IMG/VR virus record: IMGVR_UViG_2880389630_000005
Strand: one strand, 5' to 3'
DNA from: a virus
Taxonomy: Duplodnaviria > Heunggongvirae > Uroviricota > Caudoviricetes
Length of the DNA stretch: 64,000 nt
The stretch's first letter is position 1. Each line of letters opens with the position of its first letter. A program made the position numbers and the translations under genes. The notes below the pieces were generated by a model. It saw only the letters and a program-made list of their open reading frames with translations. It was not told the origin of the DNA and searched no databases. Below are positions 55,821 through 60,753 of the stretch, one piece after another.

Positions 55821-56480
55821 ATGAAAATGAAATGGTATGAACTGGCTAGATCCAGAATGAAAGAGCTCGGCATAACTCAAGAGAAGTTAGCTGAAGAGCT
55901 TGGTATGACGCAGGGTGGAATTGGTCACTGGTTGCGCGGATCTCGTCATCCATCTCTTGACGAGATTGGTGTGGTGTTTAAATACCTTGGTATTGATAAC
56001 GTCTCATTCAACCACGACGGTACATTTTCACCTGTTGGCGAATACTCATCTGCCCCCGTTAAAAAACAATATGAGTACCCTGTTTTTTCTCATGTTCAGG
56101 CCGGGATGTTCTCGCCTGAACTTAGAACCTTTACCAAAGGTGATGCGGAGAGATGGGTCAGCACAACCAAAAAAGCCAGTGATTGTGCGTTCTGGCTTGA
56201 AGTTGAAGGTAATTCCATGACCGCGCCAACAGGATCCAAGCCAAGCTTTCCTGACGGGATGTTAATTCTCGTTGACCCTGAGCAGGCTGTTGAGCCAGGT
56301 GATTTCTGCATAGCCAGACTTGGTGGTGACGAGTTTACCTTCAAGAAACTGATCAGGGATAGCGGTCAGGTGTTCCTACATCCACTAAACCCGCAATATC
56401 CAATGATCCCATGCAATGATAGCTGTTCCGTTGTAGGGAAAGTTATCGCCAGCCAGTGGCCTGAAGAGACATTTAGTTAA
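55821..56480 (+). CDS. cI: CI repressor (HTH plus LexA-like S24 peptidase domain)
   Basis: About 219 aa; N-terminal HTH; C-terminal GNSM...Ser/Lys autocleavage domain motifs; start may be the ATG 6 nt downstream. Confidence 0.8.
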
Positions 56481-56512
56481 CAGCCTCACCACTCTAAAGC
56501 ACACAACAATAA

Positions 56513-56540
56513 CCCGACCTTAGTGTCGGGTTTTCTTTTT
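56513..56540 (+). terminator. rho-independent terminator after cI
   Basis: CCCGACC-TTAGT-GTCGGG followed by TTTTCTTTTT. Confidence 0.6.
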
Positions 56541-56605: not shown

Positions 56606-56634
56606 TTGACTCGATAAAGTACAAATCGTACTAT
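56606..56634 (+). promoter_or_regulatory. candidate pL promoter (with OL)
   Basis: TTGACT -35 and TACTAT -10 with 17-bp spacer; GTACAAATCGTAC dyad overlaps; upstream of nutL and N. Confidence 0.45.
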
Positions 56635-56673
56635 TTAGCCATCAGCAGGACGCACTGACCACCATGAAGGTGA

Positions 56674-56704
56674 GGCTCTTAAAAATTTAGCCCTGAAGAA
56701 GGGC
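56674..56704 (+). promoter_or_regulatory. nutL (boxA and boxB)
   Basis: boxA-like GGCTCTTA and boxB hairpin GCCCTGAAGAAGGGC, identical to lambda nutL boxB. Confidence 0.7.
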
Positions 56705-56814
56705 AGCATTCAAAGCAGAAAGCTTTGAGTAGCGCGAAATGCAGCTGCAAGACAGCAACCGTGGAGATAAGCATCACGGCGCGTTACTCAAAGCTAACTG
56801 ACAGGAGAATCCGG

Positions 56815-57141
56815 ATGGATGCACAAACACGCCGCCGCGAACGTCGCGCAGAGAAACAGGCTCAATGGAAAGCAGCAAATCCCCTGTTAGTTGGGGTAAG
56901 CGCAAAACCAGTTAACCGCCCTATTCTCTCGCTGAATCGCAAACCGAAATCACGAGTAGAAAGCGCACTGAATCCGATAGACCTTACGGTGCTGGCTGAA
57001 TACCACGAACAGATTGAAAGCAACCTGCAGCGTATTGAGCGCAAGAATCAGCGCACATGGTACAGCAAGCCACGTAGTGAAATGGGTGTGACTTGTGTTG
57101 GTCGCCAGAAAATGAAATTAGGCAGCAAACCACTTATTTGA
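56815..57141 (+). CDS. N: antitermination protein N
   Basis: Starts at internal Met; MDAQTRRRERRAEKQAQWKAANPLLVGVSAKPVNRPILSLNRKPKSRVESALNPIDLTVLAEYH matches lambda N. Confidence 0.85.
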   Translation: MDAQTRRRERRAEKQAQWKAANPLLVGVSAKPVNRPILSLNRKPKSRVESALNPIDLTVLAEYHEQIESNLQRIERKNQRTWYSKPRSEMGVTCVGRQKMKLGSKPLI

Positions 57142-57152
57142 GAGGAATTAAT

Positions 57153-57776
57153 ATGTCATCAATCCGCTTAACTACGAGAATGAAAGAGGAAATCGCTCGT
57201 AACGCTTTAATTAAGTCTGGGGTTTTCACTGAACTTAAAGAAGTAACAAAGTTAAAGAACCAGCTTGCACTTGACGCCAGAGTTATTGCGTTTGGCGGTA
57301 AAAAGAAAACTGAGGAAGTGGAACAGTTATCATCCAAGTTAGTAGCTATAAGTGAAGAACTTGAAAAAATGGGATGTTCATTTTACTCACGCGATGTTCG
57401 TTCTACATCAATTTATCTGACTGTATCTGGCAGAAGGGTTGGATGGCTTTCATATGGGAAAGACGGCAACGGTGAAGATATATTGCTCCCTACTCCGACC
57501 AAAGATAAATGCATGTTTGACGCAGAACACGAAATAACAAAAAGGTTTGATGAAATCTGCGCATTGCAACAAAACCTTGAAGCCTTGAAAAAGGATATCG
57601 AATCAAATGTATGGGCTGCTTTGAACTCAGTCACAACAGTTAAGCGACTTATTGAAGTTTGGCCTGAAAGCAAAGAATTGCTACCAAAAGAAGAAGATAA
57701 AGCAAGTACAGCACTTCCTGCTTTACGGGTAGAAGATTTGAATAAGATGATTGGACTTCCTTCCGAGGCCGCATAG
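57153..57776 (+). CDS. hypothetical protein, first ORF of N-cIII accessory block
   Basis: About 207 aa from ATG with GAGGAA RBS; AT-rich; no motif recognised. Confidence 0.4.
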   Translation: MSSIRLTTRMKEEIARNALIKSGVFTELKEVTKLKNQLALDARVIAFGGKKKTEEVEQLSSKLVAISEELEKMGCSFYSRDVRSTSIYLTVSGRRVGWLSYGKDGNGEDILLPTPTKDKCMFDAEHEITKRFDEICALQQNLEALKKDIESNVWAALNSVTTVKRLIEVWPESKELLPKEEDKASTALPALRVEDLNKMIGLPSEAA

Positions 57777-57792
57777 TCGGCCTTTATTTTTG
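57766..57792 (+). terminator. hairpin with T-tract after the 57153 gene
   Basis: AGGCCG-CATAGT-CGGCCT followed by TTATTTTT. Confidence 0.4.
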
Positions 57793-57815
57793 GCATAAAT
57801 ACACAGAGGTGAATA

Positions 57816-58067
57816 ATGACAGCAGGAAGAATGAAAAGGCCATGGAATGTTGTTGGCGCTGGATTTAACGATGATGGGGTTTATTTCACGTTTGACGATA
57901 CAACCATCCATCGAGGTGATGTGAGATTGATGGAGGCAGCTCCTGATTTGCTCGAAGCTCTGCAAGCGATGCTAAACAAGGCATACAAGCAAAACTGGAA
58001 TGACCATTATCCTGATGAAGTATCGAAAGCACAGTCAGCAATCAGCAAAGCCCTTGGAGATGAGTAA
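57816..58067 (+). CDS. hypothetical protein
   Basis: 83 aa; AT-rich. Confidence 0.35.
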   Translation: MTAGRMKRPWNVVGAGFNDDGVYFTFDDTTIHRGDVRLMEAAPDLLEALQAMLNKAYKQNWNDHYPDEVSKAQSAISKALGDE

Positions 58068-58070
58068 TAT

Positions 58071-58541
58071 ATGACAAAATCATGGAGCGTACCTTTTCCT
58101 GAATCAGAAACTGAACATGAGGGAATGCCTGTTTTCTGGAGATTCCAAGCGACAGTTGAAGAAGATGGAATCAAAATATTCGCACTTCAATATATAGCTT
58201 TTCATCAGACAGAGCATTATGCATGGTTGGTTCCTGCGCATTGGATTGTTAATTTTAAACCAGCACCAAATCAGTGGTTACAGGAATGGAAACAAAGGAG
58301 AAATAGATATGCAATTAAGAAAGTAGCAAAAAATGCAGAAAGATCTTTTGCATTCCCAACGAAGAAACTTGCCATTGAGAGTTTATTGCGCCGGAAGAAA
58401 CACCATTTAATGAGAATCAAACAAGATTTAGCTGTTGTATCAACTCTTGTTGATGGGATGAAGAATATTGATACATCAACACCAGATATTGAATATAACT
58501 TTGGACACAACCAAGAAACAGAAAATTGGGTATTTTATTAG
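58071..58541 (+). CDS. hypothetical protein
   Basis: 156 aa; AT-rich; follows previous ORF by 3 nt. Confidence 0.35.
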   Translation: MTKSWSVPFPESETEHEGMPVFWRFQATVEEDGIKIFALQYIAFHQTEHYAWLVPAHWIVNFKPAPNQWLQEWKQRRNRYAIKKVAKNAERSFAFPTKKLAIESLLRRKKHHLMRIKQDLAVVSTLVDGMKNIDTSTPDIEYNFGHNQETENWVFY

Positions 58542-58731
58542 TACGAATAAGCACTGTGTATTCATTCCAACGAGTGAATACACGGAGCAATGTCGCTCGT
58601 AACTAAACAGGAGCCGACTTGTTCTGATTATTGGAAATCTTCTTTGCCCTCCAGTGTGGGGGCCTTTTTATATGCATACCAATAACGCTTCACTCGAGGC
58701 GTTTTCGTTATGTATAAATAAGGAGCACACC

Positions 58732-58896
58732 ATGCAATATGCCATTGCAGGGTGGCCTGTTGCTGGCTGCCCTTCCGAATCTTTACTTGAACGAATTACC
58801 CGTAAATTACGTGACGGATGGAAACGCCTTATCGACATACTTAATCAGCCAGGAGTCCCAAAAAATGGATCAAACACTTATGGCTATCCAGACTAA
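58732..58896 (+). CDS. cIII: CIII (FtsH inhibitor)
   Basis: 54 aa from internal Met; MQYAIAGWPVAGCPSESLLERITRKLRDGWKRLIDILNQPGVPKNGSNTYGYPD matches lambda CIII. Confidence 0.85.
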   Translation: MQYAIAGWPVAGCPSESLLERITRKLRDGWKRLIDILNQPGVPKNGSNTYGYPD

Positions 58897-58978
58897 ATTC
58901 ACTATCGCCACTTTTATTGGCGATGAAAAGATGTTTCGTGAGGCCATCGAAGCCTACAGAAAATGGAGGTCAAAATGA
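58865..58978 (+). CDS. kil: Kil-like small protein
   Basis: 37-aa ORF MDQTLMAIQTKFTIATFIGDEKMFREA... overlapping the cIII 3' end as lambda kil does; shorter than remembered lambda Kil. Confidence 0.5.
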   Translation: MDQTLMAIQTKFTIATFIGDEKMFREAIEAYRKWRSK

Positions 58979-59163
58979 TTCCGGTAGAACTGGCGAAAAC
59001 TCCAGAATTAAGTCGATTAAAAAGAGAATATCACATTGCTGAGGCTCGTTACTGGCGTAAAGCGGGAGATAAATCAAAGAAACAACTTTGTTTATGGCAG
59101 GCTCAAAGAGAGCGCATGAATGAGCGCGAATTTCTTTCCGTCCCATCCGAATTACCATTCTGA
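58963..59163 (+). CDS. hypothetical small protein
   Basis: 66-aa ORF between kil-like and ATPase genes; start ambiguous. Confidence 0.3.
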   Translation: MEVKMIPVELAKTPELSRLKREYHIAEARYWRKAGDKSKKQLCLWQAQRERMNEREFLSVPSELPF

Positions 59164-59171
59164 GGCAAATT

Positions 59172-59852
59172 ATGGGAACTGCGACATTAATACTCGGTGA
59201 ATCTGGCACCGGAAAATCAACCAGCATGAGAAATATCAATCCAGAGGAAGCAATACTTATAAAACCAATAGGCAAGCCGCTACCATTTAAATCAAAAGAC
59301 TGGCTTGCATGGGATGCCAGAGCAAAAAAAGGAACCGTAGTTACCACTGACAAATGGGACGTAATAGTTGCCGTAATTAAGCGTGCTCACGAATACGGGA
59401 AAAGAATCGTTATTGTTGATGACTTCCAGTATGTGATGAGCAATGAGTTTATGCGCCGCTCAGAAGAAAAATCGTTTGATAAATTTACTGAGATAGGCCG
59501 CCACGCATGGGAGGTGATTAAGGCTGCACAGGATGCACCTGATGACCTGAGAGTCTATTTTCTTGCACACACCGAAGAAACCCCTATGGGGCGCGTGAAA
59601 ATGAAAACTATCGGCAAAATGCTGGACGAGAAAATCACTGTCGAAGGCATGTTTACTATAGTTCTTCGCACCCTTACCCGTGATGACCAGTTCTTTTTCA
59701 CCACAAAAAACAACGGTGCAGACACTGTTAAATCCCCAATGGGAATGTTTGACTCCAATGAGATTGATAACGATCTCTCTTTCGTCGATGCCACTGTTTG
59801 TGATTACTACGGCATCAATAATGTTCATCAAATTAAGGAAAACGCAGCATGA
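59172..59852 (+). CDS. Sak4-like RecA-core ATPase (phage recombination protein)
   Basis: 226 aa; Walker A GESGTGKS near N-terminus; Walker B-like VIVDDFQ; sits where lambda has Red genes. Confidence 0.55.
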   Translation: MGTATLILGESGTGKSTSMRNINPEEAILIKPIGKPLPFKSKDWLAWDARAKKGTVVTTDKWDVIVAVIKRAHEYGKRIVIVDDFQYVMSNEFMRRSEEKSFDKFTEIGRHAWEVIKAAQDAPDDLRVYFLAHTEETPMGRVKMKTIGKMLDEKITVEGMFTIVLRTLTRDDQFFFTTKNNGADTVKSPMGMFDSNEIDNDLSFVDATVCDYYGINNVHQIKENAA

Positions 59853-60436
59853 GCAACGTGATTTTTACTTATAACGAAGAAGCAGCACTGACCGCAGGGC
59901 AAGGTGGTTTTATTAACGAAACTGGCGCTCATATCATTACCATTACTGAAGCAGAACTCAAGCAATCAGAAAAAGGCGCAAAATTTATTGAGTTTTCTGG
60001 CGAATCCGACGACGGACGTAAAATCCAATATCTTAGCGTCTGTGTTCAGAAAAATGACGGAACGGAAAACAAATTTGGCGCAAATGTCGTTCACGCCATG
60101 ATGGGGTGTGCCGGTATTGGACAATTAACGCAACATATGGTTTCCGCCAGTAAATTTGTTGCGCCTGAATTTCATGGAAAGAAAATCGGGTTAGTGCTCC
60201 AGAAAGTATTAACCACAAACAAAAAGACTGGCGCAGACAGCTACCAGATGGAAATACGCATCCCGTTTATTGCACAAACAGGTCAAACCCTTAAAGAAAA
60301 GGCGGAAGGCAAGCAACCAGAAACTATCGCCAACATGGTTGCCAGCCTCAAAGATAAAGACAATCGCTCTAAAAACGTAAGCCAGAATCATGCAGATGAT
60401 TATGGTTACAGCCAGAACGATTACCCTCCTTTCTGA
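59849..60436 (+). CDS. putative ssDNA-binding protein (DUF669-like)
   Basis: 195 aa; overlaps ATPase stop; C-terminal acidic/aromatic tail ...DDYGYSQNDYPPF resembles an SSB C-terminal tip. Confidence 0.4.
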   Translation: MSNVIFTYNEEAALTAGQGGFINETGAHIITITEAELKQSEKGAKFIEFSGESDDGRKIQYLSVCVQKNDGTENKFGANVVHAMMGCAGIGQLTQHMVSASKFVAPEFHGKKIGLVLQKVLTTNKKTGADSYQMEIRIPFIAQTGQTLKEKAEGKQPETIANMVASLKDKDNRSKNVSQNHADDYGYSQNDYPPF

Positions 60437-60459
60437 TTACTGAAAATAAGGCTCCCATT

Positions 60460-60753
60460 ATGCCAGCGCCTCTGTATGGTGCGGATGACCCGCGCCGCTG
60501 TTCCGGCAATTCCGTATCGGAGGTGCTGGATAAATTCAGAAAAAACTACGACCTGATAATGTCGCTACCGCAGGAAACGAAAGAGGAAAAGGAATTTCGC
60601 CATTGTATATGGCTTGCAGAGAAAGAAGAACGCGAGCGAATTTACCAGACATCAATCCGACCATTCCGCAAAGCCACATATACCCACTTCCCTGAAATTG
60701 ACCCTCGCCTGCGTAATTACCGCTCACGCTATGGCGCTATCAGTAATGACTGA
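60460..60753 (+). CDS. hypothetical protein
   Basis: 97 aa. Confidence 0.35.

Follow-up and report, generated by a model that had tools for sequence, protein, structure and literature searches.

Three probably independent cassettes in the variable slot between N and cIII of a lambdoid Escherichia coli prophage

Between the antiterminator gene N and cIII, the early-left (pL) operon of phage lambda holds ral, sieB and ea10. In HK97 and 933W, ORF3 as defined below is the only gene of the three described here that follows N (N>ORF3), and in HK542 the order is N>Nmad5>cIII. Two other genes bear on this position: gene 17, which helps P22 to escape exclusion, and Gad1 (Gabija anti-defence 1), whose anti-Gabija function has been validated experimentally. 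Here the corresponding interval is described for a lambdoid prophage contained in IMG/VR record IMGVR_UViG_2880389630_000005, a stretch of 64,000 nucleotides (nt) that is called the window, at its whole length, in what follows. Three open reading frames (ORFs) lie there within 57153-58541 on the plus strand, with the coordinates given by a first-pass annotation of the sequence: ORF1, of the Nmad5 family (57153-57776, 207 amino acids (aa)), ORF2, assigned to the family PF27050 (Phage_P22_Y8K6, phrog_1273; 57816-58067, 83 aa, acidic with an isoelectric point (pI) of 5.0), and ORF3, a homologue of HK97 Gp45 and 933W ST933Wp19 (phrog_1636; 58071-58541, 156 aa, pI 9.1). The same three coding sequences are called in the RefSeq annotation of identical chromosomes of E. 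coli sequence type 131 (ST131). The host replicon is an ST131-type chromosome, with 100% identity over 2.2 kb to p11A, S5, an O25b:H4-ST131 strain and others, and according to RefSeq the prophage carries P22-like virion genes and an integration site adjoining sbcB. The slot is an accessory and conflict-gene hotspot, and we are confident, with some reserve, that the three genes are independent cassettes that came together recently in one clonal prophage and not a functional unit.

The independence of the cassettes rests on their assortment across loci and on their separate occurrence in HK97, 933W and HK542. Assortment was followed in 80 IMG/VR loci with an Nmad5 protein at least 93% identical, of which 75 include downstream sequence, and in reference phages. 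The cassettes of these related prophages are optional, keep a fixed order and are joined through conserved spacer sequences: after N come orf28-ral, Nmad5, an ORF2-family gene, ORF3, one of Ea10, gp17 or an ORF of 138-170 aa, and then a coiled-coil ORF of 322-354 aa or Gad1, any of which can be missing, before cIII. Nmad5 stands alone before cIII in about 28 of the 75 loci, ORF3 lies downstream of it in 11 (directly adjacent in 7) and an ORF2-family gene in 8. All three genes occur together in a single locus of the 80 (L011), which is identical to the window. The first-pass annotation had taken them for one block or module, a claim that this assortment contradicts. In phage Dewey, ORF3 is the first gene after N, and other small ORFs precede cIII. 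Across 5426 complete E. coli genomes, Nmad5 is present in 210, ORF2 in 34 (102 if partial matches are included) and ORF3 in 597, the distribution of accessory rather than housekeeping genes. The full three-gene arrangement was found in 19 of these genomes, is 100% identical in 15 of 15 among the matches listed, and is confined to one clonal ST131 prophage lineage.

The company that these genes keep in sister prophages is what marks the slot as a hotspot, and it bears out the earlier statement that restriction-alleviation and exclusion functions are known from this site. Ral is encoded upstream of Nmad5 in 10 of the 80 loci, Ea10 is a further cassette between Nmad5 and cIII, four loci have in that place a homologue of P22 gp17 (PF17420 'Superinfection exclusion gene product 17', E 7e-56), and a full-length homologue of Gad1 (PF25705, E 4e-67) lies there in L020:4700-5800 (UViG_3300045988_127283). 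Of all observations, these neighbouring cassettes most favour the first-pass proposal of a defence or anti-defence function. Gad1 and gp17 share with ORF1-3 the position and no homology, so that the link is positional only; neither PF25705 nor PF17420 is among the Pfam matches of the three proteins.

Comparison with lambda at the DNA level locates the borders of the exchange. Colinearity runs through N until about 25 nt before its stop codon; positions 57773-57807 then correspond to lambda 34087-34055, directly past the ral stop codon, a conserved spacer at 58551-58673 (plus strand) is 97% identical to the ral-ea10 intergenic DNA (lambda 34045-33923), and 58674-58967 correspond to lambda 33522-33228, which comprises the cIII leader, cIII and kil. 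Relative to lambda, this alignment shows an Nmad5 gene in the place of sieB-orf28-ral, a 743-bp segment with ORF2 and ORF3 inserted about 40 bp past the ral position, and no ea10. The operon, the flanks (N 3' end, ral-ea10 spacer and cIII leader) and the early timing are those of the lambda ral-sieB-ea10 region, and Ral and Ea10 are neighbouring cassettes in the sister prophages, but ORF1-3 have no sequence similarity to any gene of that region. Against Ral, SieB, Ea10 and orf28 of lambda, blastp gave best E values of 0.87-3.2 over 8-16 residues and nothing below E 0.8, and a Pfam scan found no match to the Ral, DUF2528 and SieB families, in agreement with the first-pass view that the interval genes differ from ral, sieB and ea10. 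In the sister prophages ral and Nmad5 co-occur, and neither takes the place of the other.

The left border is shared by the whole set. Directly upstream of Nmad5 lie an intact lambda-type N in 34 of the 80 loci, an HK97-type N in 13, ral in 10 and an ORF of 74 aa in 3; the remaining loci have no intact ORF in this place, and 7 of the 8 that were inspected keep only a remnant of the 3' end of a lambda-type N. In all 80, the last 20-95 nt of a lambda-type N and an 11-nt spacer precede Nmad5 (window 57060-57152; L011-L090), even behind an HK97-type N, ral, the 74-aa ORF or no intact ORF at all. This segment is a conserved left recombination joint, which leaves N remnants behind. On the other side, the ral-ea10 spacer contains a gene-less frame of 31 codons (MSLVTKQEPTCSDYWKSSLPS..., 58590-58685). 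In sister loci the same frame opens three unrelated cassettes, namely the 322-354-aa coiled-coil ORF, the 138-170-aa ORF and the Gad1 homologue, and it is a shared joint and not coding sequence.

ORF1-3 are real genes, conserved across genera and under purifying selection. The ratios of nonsynonymous to synonymous polymorphism (pN/pS), pooled over near-identical alleles, are 0.31 for ORF1, 0.27 for ORF2 (from a single sequence pair) and 0.15 for ORF3. Their GC contents (0.399, 0.448 and 0.361, respectively) are below that of the whole window (0.491), as had been noted before; the remaining pL operon is likewise low (0.43-0.45). A minus-strand ORF inside ORF1 (57413-57796, 127 aa, rich in Ser and Leu) was dismissed as an antisense shadow, of a kind that Nmad5 also has on its other strand in Klebsiella and Serratia.

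The first-pass annotation had recognised no similarity for any of the three products, and here it was mistaken, as each belongs to a described family. ORF1 matches Pfam PF18757 (Nmad5) with 237.1 bits against a cut-off of 27 (E 2.7e-70, residues 4-203 on positions 1-206 of the 206 in the profile), 71 of 71 of its homologues carry a precomputed match to the same profile, and it also matches phrog_1965. In RefSeq it is named 'Nmad5 family putative nucleotide modification protein'. HK542 (gp33) and HK244 encode proteins with 96% identity to it in the same position after N, and its homologues extend down to 33% identity in Enterobacterales prophages and occur also in many virulent phages; a scan of genome contigs for Nmad5 yielded 4 loci only. 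In the AlphaFold2 model, which has a mean predicted local distance difference test score (pLDDT) of 85, helices 8-72 and 127-158 form a coiled coil accompanied by a beta-hairpin (86-100); toward the C-terminus, two short helices (163-176) lead through a variable, disordered linker (181-192) to a terminal peptide that is conserved. Structure searches with this model revealed no enzyme-like fold and no DNA-binding fold, and at E<=0.001 it matched in BFVD only further Nmad5 proteins and uncharacterised proteins without a name. An alignment of 11 sequences from phages of Enterobacteria, Pseudomonas, Bordetella, Edwardsiella and Vibrio has as invariant residues R5, G93, T162, L166, W170, P171, E172, L196, N197 and P203, which cluster in an N-terminal R-L motif (RLT) and in a C-terminal T..L...WPE ... 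LN...G.P module; the RLT, WPE and LN..IGLP motifs are common to ORF1 and its phage homologues of these five host genera. Basic residues conserved in the enterobacterial set are R5, K21, R43, K52, R95, K164 and R165.

The name Nmad5 reportedly goes back to Iyer and co-workers in 2013 and to gene neighbourhood only. The association that defines the family, with base- or nucleotide-modification genes as neighbours, is lacking in this prophage, the RefSeq annotation of which, taken over its whole length, contains no gene for a hydroxymethylase, hydroxymethyluracil (hmU) kinase, aGPT-Pplase, radical-SAM enzyme or pyridoxal phosphate (PLP) enzyme. Nmad5 lies inside a thymidine-hypermodification cassette in M6, LK3 and SN1 (SN1/M6: PMC9476957), with thymidylate synthase or hydroxymethylase and DNA polymerase as neighbours in M6 and LK3; such partners distinguish the M6/SN1 proteins from ORF1, which has none. 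In SP-058 the gene lies between ThyX and exonuclease/primase/Sak4, in eiAU it follows the helicase-primase, and in Dhillonvirus it is the lone opposite-strand gene inside the head module. Temperate phages present another picture. In Klebsiella, Serratia and Providencia prophages Nmad5 is the first called gene past an S24 repressor, preceded in Klebsiella and Serratia by a promoter-like site (10/12) about 200-290 nt upstream and by no N ORF, and in Dryocola and Izhakiella it lies one small ORF downstream of an N-like gene. Nmad5 is promoter-proximal in the early-left operons of temperate phages of six genera. A conserved leader of about 250 nt lies directly upstream of the gene in Klebsiella prophages (L091:4620-5000, L092:4644-5000 and L093:4742-5000), and is common to three different repressor/operator regions without an N ORF. 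Its folding is better than that of shuffled sequence (z -2.87), a boxB-like GGCCGCCTGAAGGC hairpin lies within it, and Rfam gives a sub-threshold match to the small RNA STnc100 (29.6 bits, threshold 47). The leader might serve as a regulatory RNA or in processive antitermination.

The sole genetic or experimental study on the family comes from Dhillonvirus (PMC11846954), in which a Lys-to-Glu change in Nmad5 led to escape from Tmn immunity, deletion of the gene gave no such escape, and the gene could not be cloned owing to toxicity. If the numbering of the 254-aa SECphi18 protein is used as a stand-in for the SMA8 protein, K216 would align to K164/R165 of ORF1, within the motif T-x-K-R-L-I-E-x-W-P-E. 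The Tmn-escape protein is 32% identical to ORF1, and the Dhillonvirus proteins have a large central insertion that the shorter ORF1 does not have.

ORF2 was placed in PF27050 through its homologues: among the matches listed, 120 of 120 homologues, some of them 98% identical to ORF2, carry a precomputed match to this family. It also matches phrog_1273 (E 3.3e-18). Its relatives number more than 200, and one of them, an ORF of phage Sf101, shows 95% identity. Family members such as the Sf101 ORF and P22-like ORFs (e.g., ST104 orf18) share with ORF2 the AAPDLLEAL and AAISKALGEE motifs and a place in the early-left region that is bounded by N/Ral and Ea10/cIII; the order in further E. coli prophages is N, optionally Ral, an ORF of 140 aa, the ORF2-family gene and an ORF of 62 aa, followed by Ea10 and cIII in 2 of 3 loci. 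ORF2 differs from the members of 93-109 aa, which have other N-termini, in its short 'MKRPWNVVGAGFNDDG' N-terminal type. Within the gene, PF27050 proteins are mosaics that draw on five or more unrelated N-terminal segments and on a large number of central ones, and only the two motifs are constant.

ORF3 is 98.1% and 98.7% identical to HK97 Gp45 and 933W ST933Wp19, respectively, over 156 of 156 residues, and matches phrog_1636 along positions 1-156 of 156 (E 7e-111). Its counterparts in HK97 and 933W have the same length and lie in the same operon between N and cIII, but directly after an H-19B/HK97-type N, whereas here the gene is third, behind Nmad5 and ORF2 and a lambda-type N. The homologues from Pectobacterium, Brenneria and Rosenbergiella extend to 56% identity, and 49 alignment columns are invariant. 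Because those of Pectobacterium and Brenneria (L102:5001-5477 and L103:5001-5477) sit at the far end of the operon, adjoining xis-int, the operon position of the family is not fixed. No relatives of ORF3 were found in Pfam, NCBIfam or the PDB, and its AlphaFold2 model had no match in BFVD below E 0.001; Bro-N proteins at E ~1 in that search were treated as noise. A motif resembling the HxxEH of zinc proteases (H45-H49) was likewise discarded, as E48 and H49 vary among homologues.

Sequence and profile searches of the PDB with all three proteins returned chance coiled-coil or low-complexity matches only, and NCBIfam returned nothing. In the literature, HK97 Gp45, 933W p19, HK542 gp33 and phrog_1636 are not mentioned by accession, and text matches to 'HK97 gp45' all refer to unrelated gp45 proteins. 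The supplements of an accessory-gene screen (PMC12373910) contain no sequences matching ORF1-3, and a survey of lambdoid Rec modules (PMC12315714) does not discuss these genes. The genes and the mosaic principle are already known.

The layout of the interval suggests how the three genes would be expressed. All are co-oriented with pL, with spacers of 11 nt between N and ORF1, 39 nt between ORF1 and ORF2 and 3 nt between ORF2 and ORF3. The hairpin with a T-tract that had been noticed behind the first ORF is present: GAGGCCG-CATAGT-CGGCCTT (7-bp stem, 6-nt loop) at 57765-57784 on the plus strand overlaps the ORF1 stop codon and is followed by TATTTTT, to 57792. Its function as a terminator is plausible from the sequence. 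A terminator scan found no terminator-like site between pL and 57765, which makes this hairpin the first intrinsic-terminator-like site downstream of pL, and within ORF1-3 only ORF1 has such a site of its own behind it. The 3' half of the hairpin and the DNA that follows (57773-57807) match lambda just after ral. No usable promoter-like site was found in the interval: the only one there (57790-57817) was rejected as a moron promoter, as its -10 hexamer covers the ATG of ORF2 and cannot serve that gene. The scan gave 3 promoter-like sites against 6 expected by chance, fewer than in shuffled sequence. ORF1-3 would be transcribed from pL, and only upon infection or induction. Because no terminator-like site separates pL from 57765, N and Nmad5 would be made at once and without antitermination, and ORF2 and ORF3 would depend on N-mediated read-through, an expression model for which we see about as much reason to believe as to doubt. 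Several observations weaken the case for such a division into immediate-early and delayed-early genes. The hairpin folds with -11 kcal/mol (z = -1.76), a modest to weak value. It accompanies Nmad5 in 82 near-identical loci, with an intact stem in about two thirds, and the variation seen in it amounts to single mismatches or G.U pairs with no compensatory changes, so that there is no covariation support from these loci; the distant Nmad5 genes of Klebsiella, Serratia and Providencia do not have it. Moreover, Rho-dependent termination may occur upstream of the hairpin.

As to what the three proteins do, the explanation that we put forward, with belief and doubt in balance, is a variable accessory slot of the pL operon that holds three independent, non-essential early-lytic proteins, probably binders directed at the host or at its defences. 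They would act through binding and not catalysis on functions of the host or of rival phages, in host takeover or counter-defence. A role of ORF1-3 in conflict, taken by itself, is held more tentatively, being somewhat less probable than its opposite. For Nmad5, the confident coiled-coil model and the lack of modification genes in the prophage suggest a protein that is not enzyme-like. Its working part would be the family-invariant C-terminal module of T-x-K-R-L-I-E-x-W-P-E, the variable disordered linker and L-P-A-L-x-V-x-D-L-N-x-x-I-G-L-P, at the end of a long coiled coil. A more specific version is speculative and on the whole unlikely: that Nmad5 is misnamed and is a widespread immediate-early effector that binds a conserved host component through its WPE + LN..IGLP module, either disarming immunity or being sensed by it, as by the KAP-NTPase system Tmn. 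The idea of host-directed, counter-defence binders also has weaknesses. A counter-defence role in a lambdoid phage would be argued from position and neighbours alone; neither PADLOC nor other profiles link ORF1-3 to any defence or anti-defence family; the ORF3 model (pLDDT 52) is too unreliable to indicate a mode of action; and the presence of Nmad5 in the M6-like hypermodification cassette and among the replication genes of SP-058 and eiAU fits a role in DNA metabolism at least equally.

The latter role is the principal alternative for Nmad5, though rated as unlikely. The protein would be an accessory of DNA replication, recombination or modification that binds phage DNA or recruits DNA-processing enzymes early, and it would serve the downstream Rec and replication genes instead of acting against immunity. 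Besides the DNA-metabolism genes next to it in M6, LK3, SP-058 and eiAU, the Nmad5 gene of a Providencia prophage precedes those for DUF2800, an Enc34-type single-stranded DNA-binding protein and DNA polymerase A, lambdoids have Nmad5 upstream of every type of Rec module, and several basic residues are conserved in the enterobacterial set. Yet it is associated with no single Rec module type, R5 is the only basic residue that is invariant family-wide, no DNA-binding fold was detected, and the isolated opposite-strand location in the Dhillonvirus head module does not suit such a function; the gene is also dispensable, because it is missing from phages lambda, HK97 and 933W, as it is from about 96% of E. 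coli genomes. Participation of Nmad5 in the chemical modification of phage DNA, as a protection from restriction, is a good deal less probable. The family name and the RefSeq annotation, membership in the M6/SN1 cassette and a position near that of the restriction-alleviation gene ral would fit it, but the prophage has none of the modification genes listed above, the confident model, made up of a coiled coil and a beta-hairpin, has no catalytic fold, and Ral and Nmad5 occur together in 10 of 80 loci and are hence not alternatives to each other.

Two further readings go back to the first-pass annotation, which had proposed a moron or a defence/anti-defence module. As a moron, at least one of the three genes would be expressed from the repressed prophage and exclude other phages as SieB or Rex do. 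In its favour, the genes are more AT-rich than their surroundings, ORF1 is followed by a terminator-like site, paired promoter-like hexamers lie at 57790-57817, sieB of lambda belongs to this region too, and a successful clone carries the very same proteins, which were seen on ~955-982 contigs. Against this stand the lack of a credible own promoter in the scan (with the -10 hexamer over the ORF2 start codon and fewer sites than chance would give), the close spacing and co-orientation with pL, the presence of the same genes in virulent phages, the toxicity of the cloned Dhillonvirus homologue, which argues against constitutive expression, and the PADLOC-DB defence profiles, none of which matched ORF1-3 at E up to 1. 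A moron is therefore improbable. That the three form one co-functional defence or anti-defence module can be given hardly any credence: they are contiguous, co-oriented and AT-rich, and only 3 nt separate ORF2 from ORF3, but they assort independently, with all three in 1 of 80 loci, ORF3 follows N without partners in HK97 and 933W, as does Nmad5 in HK542, and the ORF3 homologues of Pectobacterium and Brenneria that adjoin xis-int have neither partner among nine upstream genes (Pfam calls only). Taken together, the first-pass annotation was right in what it had observed and in its reading of the site as an accessory or conflict slot, and it did not hold as regards unrecognised families, a module or a moron.

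The remainder of the operon is that of a lambdoid phage, in the order, on the plus strand, of LexA-family repressor and its terminator, pL, nutL, N, ORF1-3, cIII, kil, a Sak4-like ATPase, a 195-aa protein and Abc2. The repressor gene ends at 56480, and its terminator (56511-56532) is followed by a pL-like promoter found by consensus scan (TTGACT-17-TACTAT, 56606-56634, plus strand). Adjoining it, 56640-56727 is 97% identical to the nutL region of lambda and includes, read directly on the plus strand, a boxB hairpin, GCCCTGAAGAAGGGC at 56690-56704, which we take to be the lambda nutL boxB sequence. N (56815-57141, plus strand, 108 aa, RefSeq 'antitermination protein N') is of the lambda type, and ORF1 starts 11 nt past its stop codon. 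At the right-hand limit of the slot, cIII (58732-58896, plus strand, 54 aa) overlaps the lambda cIII thermoregulator RNA element (58719-58777, plus strand; Rfam RF01804, 88.5 bits against a gathering score of 50). The earlier description of N and cIII as near-identical to lambda is borne out by aa identities of 91% and 100%, respectively. Two terminator-like hairpins precede cIII, one at 58646-58663 (plus strand, terminator scan) in the ral-ea10 spacer DNA and one at 58684-58703 just upstream of cIII in lambda-shared DNA; they are presumably the tL2 terminators of lambda. The gene kil is shortened, with 37 codons against 47 in lambda. The recombination module of the window (58865-60753) is not gam-bet-exo; it comprises the Sak4-like ATPase (59172-59852), the 195-aa protein with an acidic tail ending in ...DYPPF that resembles those of single-stranded DNA-binding proteins (59849-60436) and an Abc2-type anti-RecBCD protein (60460-60753).

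In all, the case of ORF1-3 is in itself one of routine lambdoid mosaicism, with all three genes already in databases, and the 'nucleotide modification' label that RefSeq propagates for Nmad5 is unsupported in lambdoid prophages. If the reading of Nmad5 as a misnamed effector is true, it would represent an uncharacterised family of counter-defence proteins or triggers of immunity, which about 4% of E. coli genomes and many virulent phages carry; the hotspot could then hold, with ORF2 and ORF3, another two counter-defence cassettes that are uncharacterised. The more general outcome is a map of that hotspot, an ordered array of optional cassettes from N to cIII with conserved joints, which already holds Ral, gp17, Ea10 and a Gad1 homologue and which nominates Nmad5, the PF27050 proteins, HK97 Gp45 and two unnamed cassettes as inexpensive, well-defined candidates for counter-defence screens in a genetically tractable group of phages.

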